A stretch of DNA of 32,000 nucleotides from assembly GCF_012562765.1 (NCBI RefSeq), contig NZ_CP046226.1, positions 150,001 through 182,000 of the forward strand, in the 5' to 3' direction. The number at the start of each line of letters is the position of its first letter. Position 1 is the first letter of the stretch. A program made the translations under genes and the position numbers. The notes under the pieces were generated by a model. The model made no database searches. It was not told the DNA's origin and worked only from the letters and a program-made list of their open reading frames with translations. Positions 345-26,621 of the stretch are shown piece by piece. The stretch is from Candidatus Saccharimonadota bacterium. Lineage in GTDB: Bacteria > Pseudomonadota > Gammaproteobacteria > Enterobacterales > Enterobacteriaceae.

Positions 345-1286
345 ATGATAAAACATTTACCAGTTATGTTAAAAGAATCTATTGATAGTTTAAATATAAA
401 AAAAAATGGAATTTATATAGATGCTACATATGGATGTGGAGGACATACAAAATTAATTTTGTCTAAATTAGGAAATAAAGGACGTATTTATGCAATAGAT
501 TGTGATATAAAAACAATATTAATTAATAAAATTTTAGATAAAAGAATAATATATATAAATGAAAAATTTTCTAATTTAATAAATATTTTAGATACTCAAG
601 TTTTAGGTAAAATAGATGGAATATTATTTGATTTAGGATTTTCATCTTTTCAATTAAATGATCCTAAAAGAGGTTTTTCTTTTATGTTTGATGGTCCATT
701 AGATATGCGTTTTGATCAGAATCATGGAATAACTGCTACTGAATGGATTAAACAAGTTAGTAAAAATAAATTAGCTTATGTACTAAAAAAATATGGAGAA
801 GAAAAATTTGCTAATAAAATAGCATGTAATATTAAAAAATACATTATAAAAAATAAATTAGACAAAACTAGTCATTTAAATAAATTAATATTTTCTATAA
901 CATATAAATTAAAAAAAAATAAAAAAATATTTAAACATCCTGCAACAAGAACTTTTCAAGCTATAAGAATTTTTATTAATAAAGAATTAGAAGAATTAAA
1001 AAAAGCTTTATTTAATTCATTAAATATATTAAAAAAAGGAGGTATAATATCTGTAATTAGTTTTCATTCATTAGAAGATCGTATTGTAAAAAGATTTATG
1101 AAAACACATACTACAAATAATGATAAATATCATACTCGTATACCATTAACTGAAAAAGAAATAAATATTTTATCTAAAAAAGATTATAAATTAAAAATAA
1201 TTAATAGAATATTTCCTAGTTCTAAAGAAATTTATAATAATCCAAGATCAAGAAGTGCAATATTACGTGTAGGAAAAAAAATATAA
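345..1286 (+). CDS. rsmH: 16S rRNA (cytosine1402-N4)-methyltransferase RsmH (MraW)
   Basis: 313-aa ORF, collinear with E. coli RsmH. Motifs seen: GIYIDATYGCGGHT (SAM site), DGILFDLGFSSFQL, KHPATRTFQAIRIFIN, SFHSLEDRIVKRF, NPRSRSAILRV. First gene of the dcw cluster. Confidence 0.95.
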   Translation: MIKHLPVMLKESIDSLNIKKNGIYIDATYGCGGHTKLILSKLGNKGRIYAIDCDIKTILINKILDKRIIYINEKFSNLINILDTQVLGKIDGILFDLGFSSFQLNDPKRGFSFMFDGPLDMRFDQNHGITATEWIKQVSKNKLAYVLKKYGEEKFANKIACNIKKYIIKNKLDKTSHLNKLIFSITYKLKKNKKIFKHPATRTFQAIRIFINKELEELKKALFNSLNILKKGGIISVISFHSLEDRIVKRFMKTHTTNNDKYHTRIPLTEKEINILSKKDYKLKIINRIFPSSKEIYNNPRSRSAILRVGKKI

Positions 1287-1342
1287 ATAATTTAATTGTA
1301 TTAAATATTTTAATAAATATTTGAATTTTATAAGGTTAACTA

Positions 1343-2854
1343 TTGACTAGTTATAGATTAAATTTATCAGAATTATTAAATAATTTTATATATGATCATA
1401 AAATATCTAATATTATTATTAATAGAATAGTTTTAGATAGTCGTAAAATTAAAGGTCATCATTGTTTATTTTTAGCTATTAAAGGTTCTAAAGTAGATGG
1501 TAAAATTTTTATAGATGATGCTATTAAAAAAGGAGCTATTGCTATTATAACTTATAGTGAAAATAATATTTATCCATATAATATTATTTATAAAAATAAT
1601 ATTCCTATAATTACTTTACCTAATTTACAAGAACAAATTTCTTTTTTTGCTGGAAAATTATATAATAATCCTAGTCATAAAATACCTGTAATTGGAGTTA
1701 CAGGAACTAATGGGAAAACAAGTATTACTCATTTTTTAATGCAATGGATTAATTTATTAGGAAAAAAAGCAGCAATTTGTAGTACATTAGGTAATGGTTT
1801 TGATAAAAATTTAATAACTACTAATAATACAACAGATTCTGCTATTGATATTCAATATTTATTAAAAAATTTTGTAGAACAAAAAGCAGATATAGCTATT
1901 ATAGAAATATCTTCTCATGGTTTAAAACAATTTAGAGTATCTAATTTAAAATTTTCAGCAGGAATTTTTACAAATTTAAGTAGAGACCATTTAGATTATC
2001 ATCTTAATATGAAAAATTACGAACTAATTAAATGGAAATTTTTTTCTGAACATAAAATTAAAAAGAGAATAATAAATATTGATGATATTATAGGATATAA
2101 TTGGTTTAATAAATTATCTTATAGTAAAAATACTGTTGCTGTTACTACTAAAAAAAATATTTATTTTAAAAATAATTTATATTTTAAAGTTATTAAAATA
2201 AATTTTTTTAAAAATAATACTATTATTGAATTTAATTCAAGTTGGGGAAAAGGAAAAATTAAAATATTTCTTATTGGATATTTTAACGTTATTAACATTA
2301 TTTTAAGTATGACTACATTATTAACTTTAAATTTTTCTTTAAAAGAACTTATAGATACTTCATCTAAATTACATTCTGTTTATGGAAGAATGGAAATATT
2401 TCCTTCACAAAAAAAATATCCAACAGTTATAATTGATTATGCTCATACTCCTGATGCATTAAAAAATGTTCTTTTAACTATTAAATTATACTGTAAAGGA
2501 AAAATATGGTGTATATTCGGATGTGGTGGTGAAAGAGATATTGGAAAACGTTCAATTATGGGTATTATTGCTAAAAAATTTTCAGATATAATAATTATTA
2601 CTACTGATAATCCTAGATCAGAAAATATAATAAATATAGTTAAAGATATTATACAAGGATATAAATATCATGATAACTTACATATAATAATAAATAGATT
2701 TGAAGCAATTAATTATGCAATGAATAATGCTAATAAAAATGATGCTATACTAATAGCAGGCAAAGGTCATGAACAATATCAAATTATAGGGAATAAAATT
2801 TTTAATTATTCTGATTATAATGTTGTTAATAATTTTTTTAAAAAAAATAGCTAA
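1343..2854 (+). CDS. murE: UDP-N-acetylmuramoyl-L-alanyl-D-glutamate--2,6-diaminopimelate ligase MurE
   Basis: 503 aa. Mur-ligase P-loop GVTGTNGKTS; DYAHTPDAL; the DNPR motif (TTDNPRSEN) typical of meso-DAP-adding MurE. TTG start at 1343 preceded by aagg at 1332-1335. Only 56 bp after the rsmH stop. Confidence 0.93.
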   Translation: MTSYRLNLSELLNNFIYDHKISNIIINRIVLDSRKIKGHHCLFLAIKGSKVDGKIFIDDAIKKGAIAIITYSENNIYPYNIIYKNNIPIITLPNLQEQISFFAGKLYNNPSHKIPVIGVTGTNGKTSITHFLMQWINLLGKKAAICSTLGNGFDKNLITTNNTTDSAIDIQYLLKNFVEQKADIAIIEISSHGLKQFRVSNLKFSAGIFTNLSRDHLDYHLNMKNYELIKWKFFSEHKIKKRIINIDDIIGYNWFNKLSYSKNTVAVTTKKNIYFKNNLYFKVIKINFFKNNTIIEFNSSWGKGKIKIFLIGYFNVINIILSMTTLLTLNFSLKELIDTSSKLHSVYGRMEIFPSQKKYPTVIIDYAHTPDALKNVLLTIKLYCKGKIWCIFGCGGERDIGKRSIMGIIAKKFSDIIIITTDNPRSENIINIVKDIIQGYKYHDNLHIIINRFEAINYAMNNANKNDAILIAGKGHEQYQIIGNKIFNYSDYNVVNNFFKKNS

Positions 2855-4221
2855 TGAATAAATTAATTTGTTTAAAAAAAATAACAAAAATTGTGAATGG
2901 TAGATTAATTGGAAAAAATATTAATATATTAAATTTTTCTATAAATAGTAAAAAAATTAATGTTAAATGTTTATTTATTGCTATTCATGGAAAAAATTTT
3001 GATGGACATGATTTTGTTAAAGAAGCTATAAATAATGGTGTAATAGCTATAATTGTAAGTAAATATTTACAAGTAACAATTCCTCAAATAATTGTATCTG
3101 ATACAATTATTAGTTTAGGTAAAATAAGTTTATGGAAAAGATTACAATCAAAATCTCATTTTATAGGTATTACTGGATCATCTGGTAAAACATCTGTTAA
3201 AGAAATGACTGTATCAATTTTAAAAAATATAGGAAATACTTTATTTACTAAAAATAATATGAATAATATTATTGGTGTATCTTTGACATTATTAAATTTA
3301 AATAATCAATATAAATATACAATTATTGAGTTAGGAGCTAATAATTTAGATGATATTAAATATTCAAGTAATTTAGTTAGACCTAATACAGCTATTATTA
3401 ATAATATATCAGAATCTCATTTAGAAGGTTTTAAATCTTTTGAAAATATTATAAAATGTAAAAGTGATATATTTAAATTTTTATCAAATAATGATAGAGC
3501 AATTATTAATTTTGATGATATAAATTATAAAAAAATTTTATATAAATTAGTTAATAAAAAAATATGGACATTTTCTATAAATAATTATAATACTGATTTT
3601 TTTACTAGTAATTTAAAAATATTACAAAATAAAATTTATTTTAATTTACATACTCCAATAGGAGTTATCTTTATTAATTTATTTATTATTGGTGGATTAC
3701 ATAATGTAAGTAATGCATTAGCTGCTTCAGCATTATCATTATCTGCAGGAGCTTCTTTAAAAGATATATCTAAAGGTTTAGCTGATTTTAAACCAGTATT
3801 AGGTAGAATTTCCCCTATAAAATTAGGATATAATAAAATAATTTTAAATGATACATATAATGCTAATCCTCAGTCAGTTATAGCAGCTATTAATGTTTTA
3901 AAAAAAATGAATGGAAAAAAAATTTTAGTAATTGGTGATATGATGGAATTAGGATTTAATTCATTTTTTTATCATAATCAAATAAAAAACTTTATTTTAG
4001 AATGTAAATTAGATTATGTTTTAAGTATTGGAAATTATAGTAAATACATTACAAAAAATAATAATAATGCTGAACATTTTTCAAATAAAAAAACATTAAT
4101 TACAAAATTAATTAAAATATTAGCTAATTTTAATAAATTTACTATATTATTTAAAGGTTCTAGAAAAGCTCAAATAGAAATTTTAATAAATATGTTATTA
4201 GAGCAGGAAAAATTTAAATGA
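2854..4221 (+). CDS. murF: UDP-N-acetylmuramoyl-tripeptide--D-alanyl-D-alanine ligase MurF
   Basis: 455 aa. P-loop GITGSSGKTS, NDTYNANP, VIGDMMELG. The ATG shares one base with the murE stop (TAATG at 2852-2856). Confidence 0.93.
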   Translation: MNKLICLKKITKIVNGRLIGKNINILNFSINSKKINVKCLFIAIHGKNFDGHDFVKEAINNGVIAIIVSKYLQVTIPQIIVSDTIISLGKISLWKRLQSKSHFIGITGSSGKTSVKEMTVSILKNIGNTLFTKNNMNNIIGVSLTLLNLNNQYKYTIIELGANNLDDIKYSSNLVRPNTAIINNISESHLEGFKSFENIIKCKSDIFKFLSNNDRAIINFDDINYKKILYKLVNKKIWTFSINNYNTDFFTSNLKILQNKIYFNLHTPIGVIFINLFIIGGLHNVSNALAASALSLSAGASLKDISKGLADFKPVLGRISPIKLGYNKIILNDTYNANPQSVIAAINVLKKMNGKKILVIGDMMELGFNSFFYHNQIKNFILECKLDYVLSIGNYSKYITKNNNNAEHFSNKKTLITKLIKILANFNKFTILFKGSRKAQIEILINMLLEQEKFK

Positions 4222-5303
4222 TAATAATATTAGTTAAATATTTAAAATATTATTTTCCAATATTAAATATTTTTATTGGTTTAACTTTTCGTGCTATTAT
4301 TAGTCTTTTAACTTCTTTTTTTATTTCATTATATATTATTCCATATTTCATTATATTTTTAAAAAAAAAAAAATATTCTCAAGTAATTCGTTTAGATGGT
4401 CCAAAATCTCATTTTAAAAAAAATAATATTCCTACTATGGGTGGTATAGTAATATTAATATCATTTCTTATTTCTGTTTTATTTTGGTCTAATTTATATA
4501 ATCCATATTTATGGTATGTATTAATCATAGTTATATTTTATGCATTTATTGGTTTTATTGATGATTTTTATAAAATAATTTTAAATAATTCTATTGGTTT
4601 AGTAATTTATAAAAAAATTTTGTTACAAACTATTATAACAATAATAATTGTTACATTTTTTTATATAAATAATACAGAAAAATCTGCGTTACAATTAGTA
4701 ATTCCTTTTTATAAAAATCTTAAAATTTATTTAAATTTTCCTACATATTTAATGATTTCTTATTTAATTATATTATGGATTAGTAATTCTGTAAATTTAA
4801 CAGATGGATTAGATGGTTTAGCTATTATTTCTGTAATATTAGTTATTTTTGGATTATCATTATTATCATATGTTACAGGAGATATAAATTATTCTACATA
4901 TCTAAATATTCCATATTTAAAACATACAAAAGAATTAGTAATTATATGTACTGCTATTATTGGTTCAGGACTAGGTTTTTTATGGTTTAATACATATCCA
5001 GCAATTATATTTATGGGTGATATAGGATCATTATTTTTAGGAAGTGCTATAGGAATGATTACTGTTTTAATAAGACAAGAATTATTATTAATAATTATGG
5101 GTGGAATATTTTTATTAGAATCATTATCTGTAATTATTCAGGTTTTTTTTTATAAATATAAAAAATATCGTATATTTCTTATGGCTCCTATACATCATCA
5201 TTTTGAATTAAAAGGATATTTAGAATCCCATATTGTCATTAGATTTGGAATAATATCATTAATATTATTACTTATTGCTTTATCAATATTAAAGGTATGT
5301 TAA
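4218..5303 (+). CDS. mraY: phospho-N-acetylmuramoyl-pentapeptide transferase MraY
   Basis: 361-aa polytopic membrane protein. Motifs PTMGG, NLTDGLDGLA, FMGDIGSL, MAPIHHHFELKG. ATGA overlap with the murF stop (4218-4221). Contains an in-frame A13 tract at 4361-4373. Confidence 0.95.
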   Translation: MIIILVKYLKYYFPILNIFIGLTFRAIISLLTSFFISLYIIPYFIIFLKKKKYSQVIRLDGPKSHFKKNNIPTMGGIVILISFLISVLFWSNLYNPYLWYVLIIVIFYAFIGFIDDFYKIILNNSIGLVIYKKILLQTIITIIIVTFFYINNTEKSALQLVIPFYKNLKIYLNFPTYLMISYLIILWISNSVNLTDGLDGLAIISVILVIFGLSLLSYVTGDINYSTYLNIPYLKHTKELVIICTAIIGSGLGFLWFNTYPAIIFMGDIGSLFLGSAIGMITVLIRQELLLIIMGGIFLLESLSVIIQVFFYKYKKYRIFLMAPIHHHFELKGYLESHIVIRFGIISLILLLIALSILKVC

Positions 5304-6610
5304 TAAATATGATTAAAAAAGTAGTAATTATAGGTTTAGGAATTACTGGACTTTCATGTATTAAATTTTTTATTAATAAAGGTATTATACCATATATTAT
5401 GGATAGTAGAACTAATCCTCCTTTTATTAAAGAAATACCACCTTTAGTTAAATATTGTATTGGTTATCTTAATAAAGATTGGATTTTAAATGCTAATTTA
5501 ATTGTTATTAGTCCAGGAATTTCTATATTTCATCCATTATTAAAAAATGCTATAAATAAAGGAATTAAAATAATAGGAGATATTGAATTATTTTATTATT
5601 TTTCCAAAAATCCTATAATTGCTATTACAGGAACTAATGGAAAAAGTACTGTTACTAATATGATTGGAAAAATTATAAATAATTATTATAGTGCTGGAAT
5701 TGGAGGAAATATTGGGTATCCTGCATTAGAATTACTATCTAATTTTCAAAATTTTTATATATTAGAATTATCTAGTTTCCAATTAGAAACTATAAAAAAA
5801 TTTAAATCATATATATCTGTTATATTAAATATTTCATCAGATCACATGGATCGTTATCCATTAGGAATAGAACAATATCAAAAAATTAAATTAAATATTT
5901 ATAAAAATGCTTCTATATGTATATATAATGCTAATAATTCTTTAACATATCCAAATAATTTACAAAAAAATCAACGTGCTATTAGTTTTGGTATAAATAA
6001 AGGAAAATATCAAGTATATAAAAAACAAAAAAATATTTATTTAAAAGTAAATAATAAAATAATTTTAAATTTTAATAAAACTAAATTAATAGGAACACAT
6101 AATTATATTAATTCTTTAGCTGTATTAGCAATATCAGATATATTACATATACCAAGAAATATATCTTTAAAAATTATTAGTAATTACATGTTAAATAATC
6201 ATACATTACAGATTGTACATAAAAAAAATGGTGTTATTTGGATAAATGATTCTAAATCTACTAATATAAATAGTACAAAAGCAGCTTTAAGTTTTTTAGG
6301 TAATAATAAAAGAATATGGTTGTTATTAGGAGGATATGATAAAAATTGTGAATTTCATTTATTAAAAAAATATTTAATGAATGATAAGATTCATATTTAT
6401 TGTTTTGGATTAGCTAGTAAAAAAATATTATCTTTATATCCTAAAGCAATACAAGTACAGACTATGTCTGATGCGATAAAAAATATTTCAAAATTTTTAA
6501 AATATGGTGATATAGTTCTATTATCTCCAGCTTGCTCCAGTATTGATCAATTTATTAATTTTAAAGATCGTGGAGAAAAATTTATTGAATTAGCTAAACA
6601 GAATAATTAA
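5297..6610 (+). CDS. murD: UDP-N-acetylmuramoylalanine--D-glutamate ligase MurD
   Basis: 437 aa. VVIIGLGITGLS Rossmann N-terminus, ITGTNGKST P-loop, LELSSFQLE, INDSKSTN, LLSPACSSIDQF. Overlaps the mraY stop by 7 nt. An alternative ATG at 5309 is possible. Confidence 0.93.
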   Translation: MLINMIKKVVIIGLGITGLSCIKFFINKGIIPYIMDSRTNPPFIKEIPPLVKYCIGYLNKDWILNANLIVISPGISIFHPLLKNAINKGIKIIGDIELFYYFSKNPIIAITGTNGKSTVTNMIGKIINNYYSAGIGGNIGYPALELLSNFQNFYILELSSFQLETIKKFKSYISVILNISSDHMDRYPLGIEQYQKIKLNIYKNASICIYNANNSLTYPNNLQKNQRAISFGINKGKYQVYKKQKNIYLKVNNKIILNFNKTKLIGTHNYINSLAVLAISDILHIPRNISLKIISNYMLNNHTLQIVHKKNGVIWINDSKSTNINSTKAALSFLGNNKRIWLLLGGYDKNCEFHLLKKYLMNDKIHIYCFGLASKKILSLYPKAIQVQTMSDAIKNISKFLKYGDIVLLSPACSSIDQFINFKDRGEKFIELAKQNN

Positions 6611-6701
6611 AATAAATTTAAAAATTTAATTTTTCATTAATTTAAATATTTTTACATTATGTTAATATAATTAAATTTATTAAAAATTATATAAATAAAA
6701 A

Positions 6702-7763
6702 ATGTCAAAAAAAATTATTATAGTATCTGGTGGAACAGGTGGACATATTTATCCAGGTCTTAATATAGCATATAAATTAATAGAAAAAGGATGGAATGTT
6801 CGTTGGTTAGGTACTATTAATAGAATGGAAGCAAATATTATTCCTAAAACAGGAATAAAAATTAATTTTATTAAAGTTATAAAATTTGAAAAAAAAAATA
6901 TTTGGTCAAAAATAATTACTTTATTTAAATTAATAAAACCAATTTATGAATCTATTTTAATTTATAAATCTTATAAACCTAATATAGTTTTAACTATGGG
7001 AAGTTATATATCAGGACCTAGTGGAATAGCAGCTTGGTTATGTGGTATTCCTTTAATTATTCATGAACAAAATAGTATTCTAGGAATTACTAATAATATT
7101 TTATCAAAAATATCTACAATAAATATGCAAGCTTTTCCTAATACATTTAAAAATGGTATATTAGTAGGTAATCCTTTAAGTAAAGAAATAATAAAATTAT
7201 CTTTATTTAAAAAAAATATTGTAAAAAATAATTATATTCTTCATATATTAATTATGGGAGGTAGTCAAGGTTCTAATATTATTAATATTATAGGTGTACA
7301 ATTAGCAAAAATTTTAAAAAATAAAGTAATTATATTACATCAAGTAGGAAAAAATAATTTAAAAAATATTTCTTTATCTTTTTTAAATAAATATCAAAAA
7401 AAATTTTATTTTGTAACAGAATATATTTATAAGATTCATAATGCATATAAATGGGCAGATATTATTATTAGTAGGTCAGGAGCTATGACTGTTAGTGAAA
7501 TTTCTGCTATAGGGTTACCTGCTATTTTTATACCTTTTAAACATAAAGATAATCAACAATATTTAAATGCATTAAGATTAGCAAAAATTGGCGCAGCAAA
7601 AATTTTTGATCAAGATAATTTAAATATTAATGATATTATTAATACTTTATTATCTTGGAATAAGAAAACATTAAATATTATGTCAAAAAAATCTCGTAGT
7701 ATATCTTTAATTAATTCTACAGATTTAATTTATAGAGAAATAAAAAATATTTTAATTAATTAA
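6702..7763 (+). CDS. murG: UDP-N-acetylglucosamine--N-acetylmuramyl-(pentapeptide) pyrophosphoryl-undecaprenol GlcNAc transferase MurG
   Basis: 353 aa. SGGTGGHIYPG, IHEQNS, MGGSQGS, ISRSGAMTVSEI. Begins 91 bp after murD, at the position where ftsW sits in the canonical cluster. Confidence 0.93.
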   Translation: MSKKIIIVSGGTGGHIYPGLNIAYKLIEKGWNVRWLGTINRMEANIIPKTGIKINFIKVIKFEKKNIWSKIITLFKLIKPIYESILIYKSYKPNIVLTMGSYISGPSGIAAWLCGIPLIIHEQNSILGITNNILSKISTINMQAFPNTFKNGILVGNPLSKEIIKLSLFKKNIVKNNYILHILIMGGSQGSNIINIIGVQLAKILKNKVIILHQVGKNNLKNISLSFLNKYQKKFYFVTEYIYKIHNAYKWADIIISRSGAMTVSEISAIGLPAIFIPFKHKDNQQYLNALRLAKIGAAKIFDQDNLNINDIINTLLSWNKKTLNIMSKKSRSISLINSTDLIYREIKNILIN

Positions 7764-7791
7764 AATTATATAATATAAAATTACTACAATA

Positions 7792-9255
7792 ATGATAACA
7801 AATATGTTTAGTGAAAAAATAAATTATATAATACCTAAAATGGATAATATCAAAAATATTCATTTTATTGGTATTGGAGGTTCTGGTATGGGTGGTATAG
7901 CTTATATTTTATTGAAAAAAGGATATAATATAAGCGGATCAGATATTATTTCTAATAATATTACAAAAGATTTAATTTCATTAGGAGTAAAAATATATTT
8001 TAAACATAGTGCTAAAAATATTAATAATGCAAATGTAATTGTAGTATCTTCAGCAATAACAAATAATAATCCAGAAATAATTGCTGCTAAAAAAAATAAT
8101 ATTATAGTAATTAATCGAGCTCAAATGTTATCTGAAATAATGAGATTTTATTATGGTATAACAATAACTGGAAGTCATGGAAAAACTACTACTACTGCTA
8201 TAATATATTATATTTTTTCATCGTTAGGATTAGATCCAACATTTATTAATGGAGGAATTTTAAAAAAATCAGAATTATATGCTCATTTAGGAAAAAGTAA
8301 ATATTTTATAGCAGAAGCTGATGAAAGTGATGCTTCTTTTTTAAAATTAAGACCTATAATAAATATTATTACTAATATTGACGATGAACATTTAAATTAT
8401 TATCAGAATGATATTGAAATATTAAAAAATAATTTTTTAAAATATGCACAAAATATACCTTTTTATGGTTGTATTATTGTTTGTATTGACGATACATCTA
8501 TTCGTAATCTTATAAAAAATAATTTAATGCATAATAATATTATTACTTATGGTTTTAGTAAAGATGCAGATATAAGGATATTTAATTATCAACAATTTGG
8601 TTTAAAAAGTAAATTTACTTTATTAAAAGTAAAAGAAAATAAATTTTTAGAAATAAATTTAAATTTACCTGGTTATCATAATGTTTTAAATGCAACAGCA
8701 GCCTTTATTGTATCTTCTTATATAGGAATTAATCATAAATATATTTTAAAAGCATTAGAAAATTTTTCAGGAATTAAAAGAAGATTTGATCTCTTAGGTA
8801 TTTTTAAATATAAAAAAAATAATTTAATAAATAATATTATTCTTATTGAAGACTATGGACACCATCCTACTGAAATAAATATAACAATTAATACAATACG
8901 TATTACTTGGCCTAAAAAAAAAATTATAATGATATTTCAACCACATCGTTATTCTAGAACTATAAATTTATTTAATAAATTTATAAAAGTATTATCTACT
9001 GTTGATGTATTATTTTTATTAAATGTATATCCTGCTGGAGAAGAATATATTACTGGTGGAGATAGTATTTCTTTATATAAAAGTATTAAAAAATATGGAA
9101 AAATTAATCCAATTTTAAGCATATGGAAAAATTATAATGAAATGATTATAAGTTTATATTCAAAATTTACTGGAAATGATATATTATTAATTCAAGGAGC
9201 AGGAGATATTAATAATATCTCAACATTATTAGTAAAAAAAAAAATAAAATTGTAA
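7792..9255 (+). CDS. murC: UDP-N-acetylmuramate--L-alanine ligase MurC
   Basis: 487 aa. HFIGIGGSGMGGIA, TGSHGKTTTT P-loop, AEADESDASFL, DYGHHPTEI. An alternative start at Met5 (7804) is possible. Confidence 0.93.
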   Translation: MITNMFSEKINYIIPKMDNIKNIHFIGIGGSGMGGIAYILLKKGYNISGSDIISNNITKDLISLGVKIYFKHSAKNINNANVIVVSSAITNNNPEIIAAKKNNIIVINRAQMLSEIMRFYYGITITGSHGKTTTTAIIYYIFSSLGLDPTFINGGILKKSELYAHLGKSKYFIAEADESDASFLKLRPIINIITNIDDEHLNYYQNDIEILKNNFLKYAQNIPFYGCIIVCIDDTSIRNLIKNNLMHNNIITYGFSKDADIRIFNYQQFGLKSKFTLLKVKENKFLEINLNLPGYHNVLNATAAFIVSSYIGINHKYILKALENFSGIKRRFDLLGIFKYKKNNLINNIILIEDYGHHPTEINITINTIRITWPKKKIIMIFQPHRYSRTINLFNKFIKVLSTVDVLFLLNVYPAGEEYITGGDSISLYKSIKKYGKINPILSIWKNYNEMIISLYSKFTGNDILLIQGAGDINNISTLLVKKKIKL

Positions 9256-9297
9256 TTTTTTACATTGTCAAAAATATTTTTTATAAAAAAATTAAAT

Positions 9298-10215
9298 ATG
9301 TCTAATAAAATAGCCGTTTTATATGGTGGTGATTCACCAGAAAGAAAAATATCTTTAATTTCAGGAAAAATGGTGTTAAATTCAATGAAATTAATGGGTA
9401 TTCAAGCTTATGGAATAGATACTAGAAATTTTTCTTTATTTTTATTAAAAAAAAAATTTAAAAAAGTTTTTATTGCTTTACATGGAAAAGGAGGTGAAGA
9501 TGGAAGTGTACAAACTATATTAAAATATCTTAATATTCCTTATACTGGTAGTAGAGCATTAGCTTCTTCTATAACTATAAATAAATTTATTACAAAAACT
9601 TTGTGGAAAGAATATGGTTTACCTGTATATCCACATTTTTTATTAAAAAAAAAATATTTTATTAAAAAAAATTATTTAGAAATAAAAAAAAATATTTTAA
9701 ATTTGAAATTACCTGTATGTGTAAAACCTAATTCTACAGGATCAAGTTTAGGAGTTTTTAAAGTAGATAATATTAATTATTTATTTAATGCTATAAAAAA
9801 ATCTTTTATATATAGTAATAGTGTATTAATTGAAAAATATATTGAAGGAATAGAATATACAGTTAGTATTTTAGGTAATAAAACATTACCATCAATTAGA
9901 ATTTCTTCACCTTATGTATTATATAATTATAAAGCAAAATATTTTAATAAAAAAACTCAATATTTTTGTCCTAGTGGGTTAAATAAATATAAAGAAATAG
10001 AAATATCCAAATTAGCTATAAATGCATGGAATGTATTAGAATGTAGTGGTTGGGGTAGAGTAGATATAATTTTAGATAAAAAAAATAATTTTCAATTATT
10101 AGAAATAAATACTTGTCCAGGAATGACTCCTCATAGTTTATTTCCTATAGCTGCTCAAAAAGCTGGTTTTTCTTTTAATGATGTAATTAAAAAAATTTTA
10201 TTTTTAGCTAAATAA
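9298..10215 (+). CDS. ddl: D-alanine--D-alanine ligase
   Basis: MSNKIAVLYGGDSPERKISL aligns with the E. coli DdlB N-terminus. Also HGKGGEDGSVQ and EINTCPGMT (ATP-grasp). I place the start at ATG 9298 rather than the TTG at 9265 used by the ORF track. Confidence 0.92.
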   Translation: MSNKIAVLYGGDSPERKISLISGKMVLNSMKLMGIQAYGIDTRNFSLFLLKKKFKKVFIALHGKGGEDGSVQTILKYLNIPYTGSRALASSITINKFITKTLWKEYGLPVYPHFLLKKKYFIKKNYLEIKKNILNLKLPVCVKPNSTGSSLGVFKVDNINYLFNAIKKSFIYSNSVLIEKYIEGIEYTVSILGNKTLPSIRISSPYVLYNYKAKYFNKKTQYFCPSGLNKYKEIEISKLAINAWNVLECSGWGRVDIILDKKNNFQLLEINTCPGMTPHSLFPIAAQKAGFSFNDVIKKILFLAK

Positions 10216-10336
10216 TTCATATTATTTTTATAAAAAAATATAAAACTATATCAAAAAATATTTTTAATAAAATTATATAAATATCATTTAAAAATTTTAT
10301 TTCTATAATTATATTTTTAAAAAATATTTTATAAAA

Positions 10337-10810
10337 TTAATTTGCTAAAGAAGCTAATTGTTCTATGATATAACGTAATTTTATAGGACTTTTTTTAGCT
10401 AGGTTAAGTAATAATATAGCACTATTTTTACTTAAAGTATTTTGTTTATAAAAATATTTTTTTTTTAATATTTTATTATTTGTTAATAACATTGGATTAA
10501 TTTTAATATTTATATTTTTTAAAGAAGGAAAAATTTCTTTTTTTAAAAGTAATAAAATATTTGATTTTTCATATAAAAATCTCATCATAGAGCTAGCATT
10601 ATATGTTTCTACAATTAAAATATTATTTTTAAAATTTTTTGCATTATAGCAATTACTTAACTCTATTGGGAAATAATTTTTAATTGTTTGATTAATTTTT
10701 TTTAAAATATTTATATATAATTTTAATTTTATGAATATTCTTGAACAAGAAGGATAATTATATTCATTATAAAATATTTTTTCAATTGATAATAACTTAT
10801 TATTACGCAT
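10337..10810 (-). CDS. conserved-position hypothetical protein; candidate DUF721/DciA-like helicase-loading factor
   Basis: 157-aa ORF with no stop codon in a genome where AT-rich stop triplets are very frequent, so it is probably real coding sequence. It is divergent from secA across 130 bp. That is the slot and orientation a DUF721 gene occupies between lpxC and secA in Pseudomonas/Vibrio-type genomes (from my recollection). The core segment NNILIVETYNASSMMRFLYEKSNILLLLKKEIFPSLKNINIKINP resembles the DUF721 strand-helix-strand pattern. No search was run. Confidence 0.4.
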   Translation of the reverse strand: MRNNKLLSIEKIFYNEYNYPSCSRIFIKLKLYINILKKINQTIKNYFPIELSNCYNAKNFKNNILIVETYNASSMMRFLYEKSNILLLLKKEIFPSLKNINIKINPMLLTNNKILKKKYFYKQNTLSKNSAILLLNLAKKSPIKLRYIIEQLASLAN

Positions 10811-10940
10811 AAAATATTTATCCTTTTAATAAAATTAATTAAAAATAATTATTAATTATAAATTATTTAATAATTTATTTATAATAAATAAATTTAAATT
10901 TCTTACATTATAATTATAAATTTTATTTAAGAGTATATAT

Positions 10941-13673
10941 ATGTTTAAAAATTTTTTATCAAAAATTTTTGGTAGTCATAATGATCATGTTTTACGACGT
11001 ATAAAAAAAATAGTTAATAATATTAATTACTTGGAAAAAAAAATTGAAAAATTAACTGATTTAGAATTAAAAAATAAAACTTTATTTTTTAAAAAAAAAT
11101 TAAAAGAAAATTTTACATTAGAAAATATTTTACCAGAAGCTTTTGCTGTAGTAAGAGAAACAATTAAAAGATTATTTGGTATTAGACTTTTTGATGTTCA
11201 ATTAATAGGAGGAATAGTATTAAATAATAATTGTGTTGCTGAAATGCGTACAGGAGAAGGAAAAACTTTAACTGCAACTTTACCAGCTTATCTTAATGCT
11301 TTAACTGGTAATGGTGTTCATATTGTTACTGTTAATGATTATTTAGCTCAACGTGACGCAGAAAATAATAGATTATTGTTTGAATTTTTAGGATTAAATA
11401 TAGGTATTAATTTATCAGGGATGTCACCTAATGAAAAAAAAATATCTTATTTAGCTGATATTACTTATGGTACAAATAATGAATTTGGATTTGATTTTTT
11501 ACGAGATAATATGGTTTTTAGTTATACAGATAAAGTACAAAGAAATTTATATTTTGCTATAGTAGATGAGGTTGATTCTATTCTTATAGATGAAGCTAGA
11601 ACACCATTAATAATATCTGGACCAACTGAGGATAATTCAAAACTATATAAACAAATAAATAAAATTATTCCAAAATTAATATATCAAGAAAAAGAAGATT
11701 CTGATTCTTTTCAAGGAAAAGGACATTATTTTATAGATGAGAAATCACGACAAGCATATTTAACAGAAAAAGGATTAATTTATATTGAAAAAATTTTAAT
11801 AGAAAACAAAATTATTAAAAAAGAAGAATCATTATATTCTAATTCTAATATTATTATTATGCATCATATTATTGCTGGATTAAGATCTCATAAATTATTT
11901 ATCAAAAATGTTGATTATATTGTAAAAAATAATAAAGTTATTATAGTAGATGAACATACAGGACGTATTATGAAAGGAAGAAGATGGTCAGAAGGATTAC
12001 ATCAAGCAATAGAAGCAAAAGAAAATGTAAAAATTAATAATGAAAATCAGACTTTAGCTTCTATTACATTTCAAAATTATTTTAGATTATATAAAAAATT
12101 ATCAGGAATGACAGGTACAGCTAATACAGAAGCATTTGAATTTAAAGAAATTTATAAATTAGATACTATTATTATTCCTACAAATAAACCAATGATCAGA
12201 AAAGATTTACCTGATGTAATATATATTACAGAAAAAGAAAAAATTAAAGCAATTATAGATGATATAAAAAATAAATATGTTATAGGACAACCAGTATTAG
12301 TTGGTACTATTTCAATTGAAAAATCAGAATTAATTTCTAAAAAATTAACTTTAATAGGTATTAAGCATAATATTTTAAATGCAAAATTACATTCAAAAGA
12401 AGCTGAAATTATATCTCAAGCAGGTAAAAAATATGCTGTAACTATTGCCACAAATATGGCAGGAAGAGGAACTGATATTGTTTTAGGAGGAAATATTCAA
12501 TTTAAATTAAATAATAAATTAAATAAAGATCAAATAAAAAACATAAAATTATCTTGGTTAAAAGAACATAATGAAGTTTTATCTTTAGGAGGATTATATG
12601 TTATTGGTACTGAACGTCATGAATCTAGAAGAATTGATAATCAGTTAAGAGGTCGTTCAGGACGTCAAGGTGATTATGGTTCTTCAAGATTTTATTTATC
12701 TATGGAAGATTCTTTAATGCGTATTTTTGCTTCAAATAAAATATCAAAAATAATGCATAAATTTGGTATAAAAAAAAATGAATCTATTGAACATCCATGG
12801 ATAACTAAAGCTATAGCTAGAGCACAAGAAAAAGTAGAAAATTATAATTTTGATATAAGAAAACAATTATTAGAATATGATGATGTAATCAATGACCAAC
12901 GTTTAGCTATATATACACAAAGAAATAAATTATTACAAACTAAAAATATTAGTACAATTATAAAACAATTTCGAAAAGATGTATTTCATAAAATTATAGA
13001 TAAATATATAAAATCTAATTTATTTTTAGAAGATGAATGGGATTTAATAAAATTAAATAATTATTTTACAAAAAAATTTAATTTACATTTACCTATTAAT
13101 AAATTTTTAAAAAATTCTAAAAATAACAAATATATTATTAGTAAAAATTATTTTTTTGAAAAAATAATTAATTTTTCTGAACAAGAATATAATAAAAAAG
13201 AAAATATATTAGGTAATGATATTATTCGTAATTTTGAAAAAAATATAATGCTTCAATTATTAGATAGTTTATGGAAAGAGCACTTATCTGCTATAGATTA
13301 TTTAAGAGAAGGAATTCATTTAAGAGGATATGCACAAAAAGATCCTAAACAAGAATATAAAATTGAATCTTTTAATATGTTTAGTTTAATGTTAGATTCT
13401 TTAAAAGAAGAAATTATTACTATTTTAAGTAAAATTTCAATAGAATTACCAGAAAAAAATATTTTTAATTCATCAATAAAATTACAAAATTTTAGAAATA
13501 AAAATAATGAAAAAATTATAAATAATTTAAGTCTTTCTCAAAAAGATCATAATTATTTTATAAATAAAAAAAAAAGTAATATTAATATTTATTCATTAAA
13601 TAAGATAGGAAGAAATGATTTATGTCCTTGTTCTTCTGGAAAAAAATATAAATTTTGTCATGGTAATAACTAA
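10941..13673 (+). CDS. secA: preprotein translocase ATPase SecA
   Basis: 910 aa. [14 protein letters not shown] (Walker A), [43 protein letters not shown], and the C-terminal zinc motif [14 protein letters not shown]. No secM-like leader ORF is present upstream. Confidence 0.97.
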
Positions 13674-13734: not shown

Positions 13735-14841
13735 TTAATTTTTTAAATTATCAAAAAAAAGTTTTATATTATTTAAAAATTTTTTATATTTAGGAGTATT
13801 TTTATAACTATCTACTTTAATAAAAGTTTTTCCTAAATTATACAATATTATTTTTTGTTTATCATTTAAATTTACTGGAGTTTCTACAATAACTTTACAT
13901 AATAAATCTCCAATAATATTATCTCTTATTGATTTAATACCTTTATTACGTAATCTAAATATTTTTCCTGTTTGAGTTTCTGGAGGAATTTTAATTTTTA
14001 TAAATCCATTAAATGTTGGAATATCTAAATTACCACCTAATGCTGCTATAGAAAAATTAATAGGTAATTCACAAAATAAATTGTTTTCTTCTCTTATAAA
14101 GAGAGGATGTTTTTTTATTCTAATTTCTATATATAAATCTCCTGATGGAGCACCATTATTTCCTAAATCTCCTTCTCCATTTAATTTAATTCGATCTCCA
14201 GTATTAATTCCTGACGGAATTTTTATAGATAATATTTTATATTTTTCTACTTTTCCTTTTCCTTTACAAATAAAACATAAATTTTTTATTAAAGAACCTC
14301 TACCGTGACAATTAGGACAAGTTTGTTGTACAGTAAAAAAACCTTGTCTCATTTGTATTTGTCCATGACCATTACAAGTATAACAATTTTGAAGAGATCC
14401 TTGTGATCCAGTACCTTTACAATTAATACAGGTTTTTAAAAATGGAATTTTAATTTCTTTTGTTACTCCTTTTACAGCTTCTTCTAAAGAAATATTAATA
14501 GCATATTTTAAATCATTTCCTCTATTAGATTTATGACTTCGTGTTCCTCCAAAAATATCTCCAAAAACATCTCCAAAAATATCACTAAAATCAGTTGCAT
14601 TATTTATATTATCTTGTTCAAAAGCAGAATGTCCATATTGATCATAAGCAGATCTTTTTTGTTTATTACTTAAAATTTCGTAAGCTTGTTTAATTTCTTT
14701 AAATTTATTTTCAGCTTTTTTATTTCCTAGATTACGATCTGGATGAAATTTTATAGCTAAACGTTTATATGCTTTTTTAATTTCACTATCTTTTGCATTT
14801 CTAGTAATACCTAAAATTTCATAATAATCTTTTTCTGACAT
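13735..14841 (-). CDS. dnaJ: molecular chaperone DnaJ (Hsp40)
   Basis: 368 aa. J-domain DYYEILGI...[16 protein letters not shown]; G/F region [13 protein letters not shown]; four CxxCxGxG zinc-finger repeats ([32 protein letters not shown]). Lies downstream of dnaK. Confidence 0.96.
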
Positions 14842-14979
14842 AATATATTACTACCTTTCCTAATCCTATAATTTTAATACCGATTTCTATATTGATAAAT
14901 TTTATTTATAATATATAAACGGTATTAATATAATTTTTATATTCAATTAGTGAAAATAATTTAATGATTGAGGAGGCAA

Positions 14980-16899
14980 TTATTTTTTATTATCTTTGAC
15001 TTCTTCAAATTCAGCATCTACAACATTATTATCTTTATTTTTAGATTTATTATTATTCATATCATTATTTGTTTTTTGCTGATTATTATTTTCCATTAAA
15101 TTTGAAATTTTACTAGATGCTTGAAGTAATAATTGCATTTTTTTTTGAATATCATTTTTATCTTCTGTTTTCAATGATATATTAAGTTGATTTATTGCAT
15201 TTTCAATAAATTCTTTATCTTCTTTAGTAATTTTATCACCTACTTCTTCCATTTTTTTCTTTGTACTATGAATAAGTTGATCAGATTCATTACGTATTTT
15301 AATTAATTCTTCAAAACGAATATCTAATTCAGCATTAGATTCTGCATCTCTTATCATTTTTTCTACTTCTTTTTCATTAAGACCTGATGATGCTTTTATT
15401 ATAATTTTTTGTTCTTTACCACTTTTTTTATCTTTTGCAGAAACATGTAATATTCCGTCAGCGTCTATATCAAAAGTAACTTCTATTTGTGGAATACCAC
15501 GAGGTGCAGGACTAATTCCATCTAAATTAAACTGTCCTAGAGACTTATTATCACTTGCTCTTTTACGTTCTCCTTGAACTACATGAATAGTTACAGCAGA
15601 TTGATTATCTTCAGCAGTTGAAAAAACTTGACTATGTTTTGTAGGAATAGTAGTATTTTTATTAATTAAAGTAGTCATAATACCACCGACAGTTTCTATT
15701 CCTAATGATAAAGGTGTGACGTCTAATAATAATACATCTTTTACATCACCAGCCAATACCCCACCTTGAACAGCAGCACCTATTGCAACTGCTTCATCTG
15801 GATTAACATCTTTTCTAGGTTCTTTTCCAAAAAAATCAGCAACTTTTTTTTGAACCATTGGCATTCTTGTTTGTCCACCCACTAAAATTACATCATTAAT
15901 ATCAGATATAGATAAATGTGCATCTTTTAAAGCTATTTTTAATGGATTTATGGATTTATCTATTAAATCTTCAACTAAAGATTCTAATTTAGCTCTTGTT
16001 ACTTTGATATTTAGATGTTTAGGACCTAAAGAATCTGCAGTAATATAAGGTAAATTTACATCTGTTTGTTGTGTTGATGACAACTCGATTTTTGCTTTTT
16101 CTGCAGTTTCTTTTAAACGTTGCATTGCTAATGGATCATTAGTCAAATCAATTCTTTGATCTTTTTTAAATTCTGATACTAAATAATTAATTAAACGACT
16201 ATCAAAATCTTCACCACCTAAATGAGTATCACCATTTGTTGATAATACTTCAAAAGTTTTTTCACCATCAACTTCATCTATTTCAATAATAGAGATATCA
16301 AATGTTCCACCTCCTAAATCATATACAGCTATAGTTTGATTTCCTTTTCCTTTATCTAATCCATAAGCTAAGGCTGCTGCAGTTGGTTCATTTATAATAC
16401 GTTTTACTTCTAATCCAGCTATACGTCCTGCATCTTTTGTAGCTTGTCTTTGAGCATCATTAAAATAAGCAGGAACTGTAATTACAGCTTCACTGACTTT
16501 AGTTCCTAAGAAATCTTCTGCTGTTTTTTTCATTTTTTTTAATACTTCAGCAGAAATTTGTGGTGGTGCTATTTTTTTTCCTTTAACATATAACCATGCA
16601 TCACCGTTATTTGATTCAACAATTTTATAAGGCATAATTTTTATATCACGTTGTACTTCTTCATCTTGAAAACGACGTCCAATAAGTCTTTTAATTGCAA
16701 AAAGAGTATTTTGCGGATTCGTAATAGCTTGACGTTTAGCTGGTTGACCTACTAGAATTTCACCATCTTTAGTATAAGCAATAACAGATGGTGTAGTTCT
16801 ATCACCTTCTGCATTTTCTAATACACGAGCTTTATTACCATCTATTATTGCAACACAAGAATTAGTTGTACCTAAATCAATACCAATTATTTTACTCAT
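14980..16899 (-). CDS. dnaK: molecular chaperone DnaK (Hsp70)
   Basis: 639 aa, very highly similar to E. coli DnaK along its whole length ([41 protein letters not shown], and the C-terminal [11 protein letters not shown]). GAGGA RBS 8 nt before the ATG. Visibly less AT-rich than its neighbours. Confidence 0.98.
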
Positions 16900-17006
16900 C
16901 TAAAAGGTCCTCAACTTAAATTTTCATTAAATTATCTAAATAATTTAATAAATAAAATATTTTAAAATATTCACATTTTTGAAAATGATAGTCCTTGATG
17001 AAAAGA

Positions 17007-17035
17007 AAATGGGGACTCATATTAAAGCATCAAGG
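17007..17035 (-). promoter_or_regulatory. sigma-32 (RpoH) heat-shock promoter of dnaK-dnaJ
   Basis: The minus strand reads CCTTGATG-CTTTAATATGAGT-CCCCATTTT. This has the same box sequences and the same 13-nt spacing as I recall for E. coli dnaK P1 (CCCTTGATG-N13-CCCCATTTA) and the sigma-32 consensus CTTGAA-N13-15-CCCCATnT. It is a G/C island in otherwise G/C-free spacer, about 100 nt upstream of the dnaK ATG. Confidence 0.75.
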
Positions 17036-17230
17036 TCTAAATGTAAAAATTTTTTTAATTTTATATTATATAAGTATTAATTTTAATTTATAATATAAAA
17101 ATATTTGAAAAAATATTCATATTATTTAAAAATAATTTTAAAAATAATATTTAAACAAATGTTTTAACCAACTTATATTACATGTATAATATAAGTTAAT
17201 TTCTTTCTGTAATACATTTAGAGGATAGAA

Positions 17231-18733
17231 ATGAAATATCTAATGGAAAAAATAAATTTTACAAAAAAATATAAATCAGAATGTATAGTAATTGGAATAT
17301 TTGAGAAATATCAACTTTCTTATATTGCTGATATTATTAATAAAATATCTAATAATTATATATTAAATATTTTAAAAAAAAATAATTTTAAAGGAAAAAT
17401 TAATCAAATATTGATGTTATATGAAGTACCTAACATTTTAATAAAAAAAGTATTAATTATTGGTTGCGGTATTAAAGAAAAATTTAATAGAGAAAATAAT
17501 AAAATAATTATTAAAAAAATAATTAATAAATTAAAAAAAATTGAAATAAAAGATGTTCTCTGGTGTTTAACAGATTTAATAATTAAAAATGTTGATTTAT
17601 ATTGGAATATAAGAGATACAATAAATATTATTGAAGATAAACTTTATATTTTTAATAAATTTAAAAAAATAAAAAAACATAAATTATCTCTTATTAAATT
17701 TAACATAAATGATAATAATATTGAAGTTTATAAAAAAGCAATTACACATGCTACAGCAATTAAAATTGGTATTATAACAACTAAGAATCTTGCAAATTTA
17801 CCTCCTAATATATGTAATCCTAAATATTTATCTTTAGAAACATATAAATTAGCTGAAAAGTATTCAAAAAATATTTCAGTAAAAATTATTAATGAAATAG
17901 AAATGAAAAATTTAGGTATGAATGCTTATTTAGCTGTGGGTAATGGTTCTAAAAATGAATCTATGATGTCTATTATTAAATATGATAATTTATTTGATCA
18001 TAGTCAGCCTATAGTTTTAATAGGAAAAGGTTTAACTTTTGATTCAGGAGGAATATCTTTAAAACCTAGTTTAAATATGGATGAAATGAAATATGATATG
18101 TGTGGTGCAGCATGTATATATGGAGTAATGAATGTTATATCTGAATTAAAATTACCCCTTAAAGTTATTGGTATTATTGCAGGGTCTGAAAATATGCCTG
18201 ATAGTAATTCATTTCGTCCTGGTGATATTATTAAAACAATGTCAGGAAAAACAGTAGAAATAATAAATACGGATGCGGAAGGAAGATTAGTTTTATGTGA
18301 TGTATTAACATATGTAAATAAATTTAATCCTTCTATCGTTATAGATATTGCTACATTAACAGGAGCTTGTGTAGTTGCTTTAGGAAATAATATTAGTGGA
18401 CTTATGTCTAATAATATAAAATTATCACAAAATATAATAAAAGCATCATTAGATGTAGATGATCGAGTTTGGGAATTACCTATTAATGATAAAAATTATT
18501 ATAATCAATTACAATCAGATATTGCTGATATAAGAAATACTGGAAATTCTAACGCTGGAGGAGCTATTACAGCAGCATGTTTTTTATCAAAATTTACTAA
18601 AAAATATAAATGGGCTCATATCGATATTGCAGGAACAGCATGGAATTATAGTAAAAATAATAAATCTTTTGCTTCTGGTAGACCTGTTAATTTATTATGT
18701 CAATTTTTATTGAATTATTCATATAATAATTAA
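17231..18733 (+). CDS. pepA: leucyl (cytosol) aminopeptidase PepA
   Basis: 500 aa. VLIGKGLTFDSGGISLKP, MKYDMCGAA, NTDAEGRLVLCD (M17 metal and active-site motifs). GAGGA RBS 5 nt upstream of the ATG. Confidence 0.95.
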   Translation: MKYLMEKINFTKKYKSECIVIGIFEKYQLSYIADIINKISNNYILNILKKNNFKGKINQILMLYEVPNILIKKVLIIGCGIKEKFNRENNKIIIKKIINKLKKIEIKDVLWCLTDLIIKNVDLYWNIRDTINIIEDKLYIFNKFKKIKKHKLSLIKFNINDNNIEVYKKAITHATAIKIGIITTKNLANLPPNICNPKYLSLETYKLAEKYSKNISVKIINEIEMKNLGMNAYLAVGNGSKNESMMSIIKYDNLFDHSQPIVLIGKGLTFDSGGISLKPSLNMDEMKYDMCGAACIYGVMNVISELKLPLKVIGIIAGSENMPDSNSFRPGDIIKTMSGKTVEIINTDAEGRLVLCDVLTYVNKFNPSIVIDIATLTGACVVALGNNISGLMSNNIKLSQNIIKASLDVDDRVWELPINDKNYYNQLQSDIADIRNTGNSNAGGAITAACFLSKFTKKYKWAHIDIAGTAWNYSKNNKSFASGRPVNLLCQFLLNYSYNN

Positions 18734-18769
18734 TTATAAATAATTTTAAATATAGGATATTATTTCATA

Positions 18770-21622: not shown

Positions 21623-21664
21623 TATTAAAAAATTTAATTATTATATTTATGGATAATTATTATT

Positions 21665-22675: not shown

Positions 22676-22819
22676 ATTATATTCAAATTAATTATTTTAT
22701 AAAATTTTATATTTTTAATATATATTATGATAAATATATCATTTATAATATTTTAAAAAAAATTTTATTAAATATTAATTTAAAATAATAATAAATTTAT
22801 TTAAGAGTTTATTTTTTTT

Positions 22820-23224
22820 ATGAAAAATATCATTTATACTAAAAAAGCACCTATTCCTATAGGTTCTTATGTTCAAGGAATTGTATTTAATAACATTATT
22901 ATTACTTCAGGTCAAATACCTATTAATCCAATAAATAATAAAATTGATAGTAATAATATAGAAAAACAAACTGTGCAAGTATTAAAAAATATAAAATCTA
23001 TTATTGATAAAGCAAATTTTTCTATTAAAAATATAGTAAAAACTACAATATTTTTAATAAATTTAGATGATTTTAATATCATCAATAATATATATAAAAA
23101 TTTTTTTATTCAAAATAATGCTCATTTTCCAGCTAGAACTTGTGTAGAAGTATCTCGTTTACCACTAAATTCAAAAATTGAAATAGAAGCTATAGCAATG
23201 AAACTAAATAATAATTATTATTAA
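22820..23224 (+). CDS. ridA: 2-iminobutanoate/2-iminopropanoate deaminase RidA (YjgF family)
   Basis: 134 aa. KAPIPIGSYVQG, IITSGQIPINP, VKTTIFL..L.DF, FPARTCVEVSRLP...KIEIEAIA. Matches E. coli RidA end to end. Confidence 0.9.
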   Translation: MKNIIYTKKAPIPIGSYVQGIVFNNIIITSGQIPINPINNKIDSNNIEKQTVQVLKNIKSIIDKANFSIKNIVKTTIFLINLDDFNIINNIYKNFFIQNNAHFPARTCVEVSRLPLNSKIEIEAIAMKLNNNYY

Positions 23225-23238
23225 TAAGGAATATTTAT

Positions 23239-24285: not shown

Positions 24286-24292
24286 AAATATT

Positions 24293-25255: not shown

Positions 25256-25275
25256 AAAAATTCCTTAATAATTCA

Positions 25276-25359: not shown

Positions 25360-25455
25360 TAAAATAATTCTTCATATATTAATTTATTTTAACATAAAAT
25401 TATCTATTAATATTTATTTAAATTATATAAAACTTAAATATTTTTTATAATTTTC

Positions 25456-25485: not shown

Positions 25486-25502
25486 TATTTTAATTATGAT
25501 AT

Positions 25503-26616: not shown

Positions 26617-26621
26617 AATAT

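Follow-up and report, generated by a model that had tools for sequence, protein, structure and literature searches.

How can a bacterium that keeps the genes for making lipid II, the peptidoglycan precursor, divide when the division genes that are interleaved with them in the Enterobacterales are gone? This question is raised by a division and cell wall (dcw) cluster at positions 345-13673 of a 32,000-nucleotide stretch of DNA (hereafter the window; contig NZ_CP046226.1, positions 150,001 to 182,000 of the forward strand, assembly GCF_012562765.1). An initial annotation of the window had described the cluster as stripped of every division gene, with the genes for lipid II synthesis left intact. 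The source organism is the symbiont of the reed beetle Plateumaris pusilla, a member of the 'Macropleicola' clade. We consider it likely that reductive evolution in an obligate beetle symbiont has worn an enterobacterial dcw cluster down to the present locus and led to an elongasome-only cell, in which division is probably directed by MreB.

The region was read with a six-frame listing of open reading frames (ORFs) and with NCBIfam profiles at their curated cut-offs. Ten long ORFs were found, all but one of them on the plus strand, in the order rsmH-murE-murF-mraY-murD-murG-murC-ddl-(dciA, minus strand)-secA. RsmH, MurE, MurF, MraY, MurD, MurG, MurC, Ddl and SecA each reached or exceeded the curated cut-off for the named enzyme. 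The succession of murE, murF, mraY, murD, murG, murC and ddl between rsmH and secA matches that of Escherichia coli and of the relative G024. This member of the same family has a full cluster from mraZ to secA, which represents the ancestral state; in relatives, ddl is followed by ftsQ, ftsA, ftsZ and lpxC. The noncoding gaps in the cluster measured 56, 91, 28, 42, 121 and 130 bp, with a G+C content of 3-9%. Four of them lie where relatives carry other genes: the 56-bp gap (1287-1342; 9% G+C) in the ftsL/ftsI slot, the 91-bp gap (6611-6701; 3% G+C) in the ftsW slot, the 121-bp gap (10216-10336; 4% G+C) in the ftsQ/ftsA/ftsZ/lpxC slot, and the 130-bp gap (10811-10940) in the secM slot. The gaps of 28-130 bp held no ORF for the interleaved ftsL, ftsI, ftsW, ftsQ, ftsA and ftsZ genes. 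Nor did any E. coli dcw protein, the Fts proteins, LpxC, MraZ and SecM included, match them, even at E≤10 with a word size of 2. Pseudogene remnants are thus ruled out, in accord with the earlier view that the gaps are too short to hold them. Neither a tRNA nor an Rfam family was found in the gaps.

Absence of the division genes from the whole genome was examined by six-frame searches with hidden Markov models (HMMs) and by tblastn with E. coli proteins against both replicons, and positive controls were detected. The genome comprises 519,975 bp in two contigs, a chromosome of 514,699 bp (20.3% G+C) and a plasmid of 5,276 bp (20.5% G+C), and its completeness is 98.55%. FtsZ was not found with PF12327, with PF00091 at E≤1 or by tblastn, and 13 of 14 control genomes were matched. 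The FtsA profile matched only MreB. MraZ, FtsL, FtsQ, LpxC, SecM, FtsK, ZipA, FtsB, FtsN and FtsX were not detected in the genome by tblastn with E. coli queries; for MraZ this extends the annotation's observation that the gene is missing upstream of rsmH. The same search was negative for MinC, MinD, MinE, MreD, TolQRAB (Tol-Pal), LpxA, LpxB and LpxD, for AmiC, NlpD, MltA and RlpA, and for RodZ and Slt. HMMs for the glycosyltransferase domain of class A penicillin-binding proteins (PBPs), for Amidase_3 and for DivIC found nothing in the genome, and no peptidoglycan hydrolase other than DacA was detected by tblastn or HMM. For FtsL, FtsQ and RodZ, tblastn was the sole method. Relocation of the fts genes was rejected, since the whole-genome searches with HMMs and tblastn were negative. 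Of the two alternatives in the initial annotation, absence from the genome and transfer to another site, it is therefore the first that holds.

The stripped cluster is old. Among 24 separately assembled genomes of the genus, all 24 carried rsmH-murE-murF-mraY-murD-murG-murC-ddl-<orf-secA (the arrowhead marks the minus strand) with intact ORFs and gaps of 18-227 bp; the gap in the ftsL/ftsI slot measured 46-135 bp in every one of them. TIGR00065 detected FtsZ in none of the 24 genomes, while 16 of 17 further genera that were sampled within the order have it. Across the genus, proteins shared 52-94% identity with those of the window, a value that fell to 52-60% in the deepest branches, and since the stripped order is shared in spite of this divergence, the deletions must predate the radiation of the clade. 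Thus mraZ, ftsL, ftsI, ftsW, ftsQ, ftsA, ftsZ, lpxC and secM were deleted from the cluster before the 24 sampled lineages split. The same junctions in 24 separate assemblies also exclude an assembly artefact, a concern that had been attached to the short junctions.

The continued selection on lipid II enzymes that had been proposed from the window was supported by ORFs that are intact and conserved in 24 genomes and by catalytic motifs that are all in place. Crude Nei-Gojobori (NG86) estimates of dN/dS against three Plateumaris relatives lay mostly between 0.27 and 0.41 for the mur genes and at 0.24-0.30 for secA; a single comparison of ddl gave 0.69. MreB was far more conserved than every other protein compared: its identity across the genus was 90-99% (loci L080-L084), against 55-89% for MurB and 36-86% for MreC. 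As a separate observation, murG of one species (G016, locus L043, approximately 7780-8882) aligned over 291 of 353 residues and followed a 227-bp gap after murD, and it may carry an N-terminal truncation or a frameshift in that species.

Outside the cluster, the genome also encodes MurA, MurB, MurJ, MurI, Alr, BacA, UppS, DacA, MreB and MreC, in addition to MurC-F, Ddl, MraY and MurG. The route from UDP-GlcNAc to lipid II thus retains MurA, MurB, MurC-F, Ddl, MurI, Alr, MraY, MurG, UppS and BacA, and the flippase MurJ and the carboxypeptidase DacA are intact. MreB (G000:C1:7252-8301) shares 91% identity with its E. coli counterpart. SEDS proteins and class B PBPs are each represented by a single member. 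The SEDS protein shares 54% identity with E. coli RodA and 33% with FtsW, whereas the PBP shares 51% with PBP2 and 23% with FtsI. The two genes are adjacent and lie downstream of holA, as mrdAB does in E. coli, and neither the PBP2 motifs STVK, SAD and KSG nor the D262 context of RodA is disrupted. On the basis of identity, synteny and motifs, this sole pair is assigned to RodA-PBP2 rather than FtsW-FtsI. FtsZ and the FtsW/FtsI pair are missing, as the annotation had stated for the case that the fts genes are absent from the genome, but a synthase pair, RodA-PBP2, is still there together with MreB and MreC. MreD was a side finding in this respect: with the E. coli query it could be detected in G012 and G006, whereas the window's genome, G015, G002 and G017 gave no match.

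The claim that all genes for lipid II synthesis are intact holds from MurA onward. It fails upstream of that step, where GlmS, GlmM, GlmU and the tested genes of the methylerythritol phosphate pathway, IspD, IspF and IspG, were all absent from the genome by tblastn. Because these enzymes are missing, the host must supply UDP-GlcNAc and isoprenoid units. CdsA, PlsY and FabZ were likewise not found in the genome by tblastn, and phospholipid precursors are probably host-supplied too.

Loss of FtsZ and of all known division genes means that these cells divide in a non-standard way, without a Z-ring. We propose that the cell still builds peptidoglycan by the Rod (elongasome) machinery alone. Lipid II would be made from host-supplied UDP-GlcNAc and prenyl units and flipped by MurJ, RodA would polymerise it, PBP2 would cross-link the strands under the guidance of MreB and MreC, and DacA would trim them. 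Cytokinesis would be independent of FtsZ and, judged by analogy with known systems, would most likely proceed by MreB-directed wall synthesis at the constriction site; fragmentation of filamentous cells by the host or by mechanical force may contribute. By fluorescence in situ hybridization, larvae contain filamentous or irregular symbiont cells, whereas those of adults are small round cocci (PMC12508126). Such a stage-dependent shape is compatible with any model of loose division control.

Several points weigh against this proposal. The peptidoglycan content and the division mode of these cells are predictions from gene content. Fast-evolving small proteins such as FtsL, FtsB, FtsQ, FtsN and RodZ could escape tblastn at 20% G+C, and NG86 estimates of dN/dS are crude at such a base composition. 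No hydrolase beyond DacA was detected, which leaves strand insertion and the separation of daughter cells unaccounted for. The analogy with Chlamydia is also partial, as the chlamydial partners RodZ, FtsK, FtsQLB, FtsW/PBP3 and an amidase were not found here.

The absence of a recognisable cytokinetic protein from the symbiont genome would also be expected if the host drove division. The symbiont would then make the wall, constriction would be performed by the host through an imported or wrapping protein, the membrane of the symbiosome, or antimicrobial peptides controlling the length of the cells, and the Rod system would only maintain the sacculus. Host-derived UDP-GlcNAc and isoprenoid units would provide the host with a handle on growth, and symbiont shape does shift with host life stage (PMC12508126). 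However, the symbionts also live extracellularly, in the lumina of Malpighian tubules and in the jelly coat of eggs (PMC7289800), beyond the reach of an intracellular host machine, and the 90-99% conservation of MreB across the genus argues for an essential role of the bacterial cytoskeleton, so we regard division by the host as unlikely. The irregular and filamentous shapes in larvae (PMC12508126) could alternatively reflect L-form-like division, in which cells bleb irregularly, tubulate and undergo scission by excess membrane, and peptidoglycan is dispensable or residual. E. coli L-forms without FtsZ are cited in PMC10591338, and neither a divisome nor known septal hydrolases were found in the symbiont. 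Nevertheless, at least 20 wall-related genes are intact in 24 lineages and MreB is near-invariant, which would be unexpected for a dispensable wall. Phospholipid synthesis, as judged from the tblastn results for CdsA, PlsY and FabZ, also looks depleted rather than boosted. We consider such division improbable.

It could further be argued that the fts genes exist but were missed, being relocated, highly diverged or collapsed in the assembly, and small divisome proteins are indeed hard to detect. FtsZ, FtsA, FtsK, FtsW and FtsI are large and conserved, however, and none of them was recovered by six-frame HMM and tblastn searches of a two-replicon genome that is 98.55% complete and in which the controls were detected. 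FtsZ was absent from all 24 genomes of the genus, the junctions were the same in 24 assemblies, and the annotation by the genome's authors agrees. The chance that functional fts genes were overlooked is accordingly very small, and MreB-directed division in an elongasome-only cell is the explanation that we favour.

The parallel with Chlamydiae drawn in the initial annotation proved apt. Like Chlamydia, the reed-beetle symbiont has no FtsZ and retains MreB, MreC, RodA, PBP2, the full lipid II pathway and MurJ in a host-associated, reduced genome (PMC10591338, PMC5814848). In contrast, Chlamydia keeps FtsK, FtsQ, FtsL, FtsB, FtsW, FtsI/PBP3, RodZ and an amidase, none of which was found in the symbiont, and it belongs to the PVC group, whereas the symbiont belongs to an enterobacterial lineage whose relatives use FtsZ. 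In Chlamydia, MreB organises a septal peptidoglycan ring, and in Wolbachia supergroup J the same has merely been proposed (PMC10591338). Supergroup J resembles the symbiont in that FtsZ and nearly the whole divisome are lost, MreB, RodA, PBP2 and most lipid II genes are kept, and division is only inferred (PMC10591338). It differs in lacking MurJ as well as FtsW (PMC10591338), while MurJ is intact in the symbiont, and the loss occurred independently in the Alphaproteobacteria. Buchnera aphidicola shares with the symbiont an enterobacterial origin, a tiny AT-rich genome and the lack of lipopolysaccharide genes, and it has MinCDE (PMC10591338, PMC5814848). It has nonetheless made the opposite choice, keeping FtsZ and FtsA (with FtsW and FtsI as well in Aphidinae) and losing MreB, RodA and PBP2 (PMC10591338, PMC5814848).

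Loss of FtsZ in tiny symbiont genomes is well known, and the present case is not categorically new. With it, an independent enterobacterial lineage joins the few bacteria that combine a peptidoglycan pathway and MreB, RodA and PBP2 with the absence of FtsZ (Chlamydia and Wolbachia supergroup J), and the accessory set of this lineage is even smaller.

The Min system of the sister symbionts poses a further puzzle, as it is retained without its only known target. MinD was found in 16 of the 24 genomes of this FtsZ-less genus; the window's own genome has none. In six Donacia symbionts that were checked (loci L031-L036 in G023, G022, G012, G010, G004 and G007, at approximately 700-2570 of each), minC, minD and minE were all intact. 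MinD of these symbionts is 72-75% identical to that of E. coli, with a dN/dS of 0.05-0.13 by the same crude estimator. MinCDE in the sixteen sister genomes is under purifying selection despite the absence of FtsZ. MinC retains the RSGQ motif that binds MinD and carries Q and K at the positions of E. coli G10 and R172, respectively, two positions that we take to matter for the inhibition of FtsZ. Among the FtsZ-less genomes of other genera listed in the family survey described below, none of 15 had MinD. One tentative reading of these data is that the Rod system alone (MreB, MreC, RodA and PBP2) performs both growth and cytokinesis, without any divisome protein or known wall hydrolase, and that Min in the 16 sister lineages then acts on something else than FtsZ, for example on MreB, the chromosome or the patterning of the membrane; we would not yet call this the probable one. 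If it were true, no known apparatus for wall-based division would be more minimal than the Rod system of these symbionts, which would do without even the FtsK, FtsQLB, FtsW and FtsI of Chlamydia.

These results bear on a 2025 study that credits MinCDE with the control of division in these symbionts, terms MinC a "Z-ring positioning protein" and is silent on ftsZ (PMC12508126), as no genome of the clade encodes FtsZ. The symbionts are abundant and dissectable and switch between filaments and cocci with host stage, and they could serve as a system for the study of FtsZ-independent, wall-dependent division and of a possible role of Min apart from FtsZ.

A broken-up dcw cluster had been called unusual even if the fts genes had merely moved, but this did not hold among reduced enterobacterial symbionts. 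FtsZ was missing from 38 of 401 genomes sampled evenly across 178 genera of the family, and the 20 FtsZ-less genomes that were listed individually were all 0.2-1.0 Mb in size. Fifteen of the listed genomes came from other genera; MraY was present in nine of them, MreB in four and a SEDS protein in four. Among those listed, nine other FtsZ-less genera (G045, G129, G201, G211, G054, G059, G070, G193 and G148) had similarly stripped dcw clusters, with the pattern rsmH-murE-(murF)-mraY-murD-murG-murC-(ddl)-(lpxC)-secA and no ftsL, ftsI, ftsW, ftsQ, ftsA or ftsZ. G129 and G201 had a full elongasome-only set with MreB and a SEDS protein, as did G045, except that its SEDS gene was split. Unlike the window's genome, several of the other genera had lost murF, ddl, MreB or the SEDS protein, and the mur genes of G148 were fragmented. 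G054 and G070 showed gaps of 1.1-2.5 kb exactly at the ftsL/ftsI, ftsW and ftsQ/A/Z slots, in which no fts remnant was found at E≤0.05. The position and size of these gaps are the evidence on which the two genomes could be called an intermediate stage. The window therefore represents one case of a recurrent route of erosion in enterobacterial symbionts, not a singular event. The survey suggests that such erosion repeatedly takes away the divisome before lipid II synthesis, the reverse of the course taken by Buchnera.

Four of these genera were also peculiar in their wall genes. G054 (L075), G211 (L071), G059 (L076) and G070 (L077) kept mraY, murG and other mur genes, and no SEDS protein was found in them. 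MreB was missing in G054, G059 and G070 and kept in G211. Lipid II may be made in these four without a known polymerase, although class A PBPs were not searched there.

The identity of the source organism agrees with published data. The P. pusilla symbiont was reported to have a 514,699 bp chromosome and a 5,276 bp plasmid (PMC7289800, Reis et al. 2020, Table 1), and the symbiont plasmid was described as carrying trfA and a prephenate dehydratase gene (PMC7289800); the same two genes are on the plasmid of the window's genome. In GTDB the genus falls in a broad Enterobacteriaceae, a 5-Mb member of which has an FtsZ 99% identical to that of E. coli. The genome paper states that peptidoglycan biosynthesis is retained, and ftsZ, cell division and mreB go unmentioned in its main text (PMC7289800). 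In the supplementary gene table of its authors, FtsH and FtsJ are the only Fts names, and FtsZ is not listed. Transcription and differential expression of mraY, murB and murI were observed in sister symbionts by RNA-seq (PMC12508126). No paper joining ftsZ with the Donaciinae was found in the literature searched, and a mention outside that literature is possible. The absence of FtsZ is thus visible in public annotation and appears not to have been discussed in print.

The individual genes of the cluster were assigned as follows, and their layout, junctions and overlaps were all as first annotated. rsmH (345-1286, plus strand), which encodes the 16S rRNA m4C1402 methyltransferase, is the first gene of the remnant cluster (TIGR00006, 335 bits against a cut-off of 154; 46% identity to E. 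coli RsmH). murE (1343-2854, plus strand), for the ligase that adds meso-diaminopimelate, scored 608 bits against 586 with NF001123 and has the P-loop GTNGKT. It begins with TTG (1343-1345), a weak start codon at the head of the mur operon that is conserved in 21 of 24 orthologues of the genus; in the window, AAGG lies 7 nt upstream of it. murF (2854-4221, plus strand; TIGR01143, 385 bits against 289; P-loop GSSGKT) overlaps murE by 1 nt at 2854, where the last base of the murE stop codon is the first base of murF. mraY (4218-5303, plus strand; TIGR00445, 379 bits against 192) overlaps murF by 4 nt (4218-4221) and conserves the D115/D116 and D267 contexts. murD (5297-6610, plus strand; TIGR01087, 378 bits against 212; P-loop GTNGKS) overlaps mraY by 7 nt (5297-5303).

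Downstream of the ftsW-slot gap, murG (6702-7763, plus strand; TIGR01133, 301 bits against 250) retains the H19 and E269 contexts and is separated by 28 bp from murC (7792-9255, plus strand; TIGR01082, 498 bits against 335; P-loop GSHGKT). ddl (9298-10215, plus strand) encodes the D-Ala-D-Ala ligase (NF002378, 346 bits against 243). Its longest ORF begins with TTG at 9265, but the likely start is the ATG at 9298. Given this ATG and an orthologue length of 305-307 aa, the gap between murC and ddl is 42 bp. secA (10941-13673, plus strand) scored 1197 bits against 814 with NF009538 and encodes a protein with 63% identity to E. coli SecA. A promoter and terminator scan gave 127 promoter-like sites against approximately 140 expected, in sequence of only 6-20% G+C.

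The minus-strand ORF between ddl and secA (10337-10810) had been left unnamed in the initial annotation, and we identified it as dciA, a DUF721 gene for the loader of the replicative helicase DnaB. On its own, the window ORF scored 22.6 bits with the Pfam DciA profile, just below the cut-off of 24. Pfam DciA matched 16 of the 24 orthologues, however, and a profile of these 24 orthologues matched a DUF721 protein in the PDB (8a3v_C) over nearly its full length (E=4.8e-12). Five relatives have a DciA gene between lpxC and secM that the ORF matched by tblastn (E 1e-17 to 1e-23); the order there is ftsZ-lpxC-<dciA-secM-secA, with the same position and strand. DnaC and DnaT were not found in the window's genome by tblastn, and DnaB is present. 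On this profile and synteny evidence the ORF is the retained helicase loader at its ancestral position, not a division gene; secM has truly been lost between dciA and secA. The thought that DciA might place the organism outside the Enterobacterales was rejected, as 93 of the 178 genera in its own GTDB family have DciA, at the same position.

Two minor observations concern the rest of the genome. The plasmid encodes a 935-aa inverse autotransporter of the intimin/invasin type with IAT_beta, BIg21 and InvE adhesion domains (G000 contig C2, locus L017, 1-2808, plus strand); such an adhesin would not be expected in a symbiont genome of 0.5 Mb and may be tied to an extracellular phase of transmission. 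In the window, mutT, which is next after secA in E. coli, is absent, and positions 13735-32000 are occupied by ordinary symbiont genes, namely dnaJ and dnaK (minus strand), pepA, valS, argI, ridA, potD, trhO (minus strand), tRNA-Leu, tRNA-Asn, prmB and aroC.

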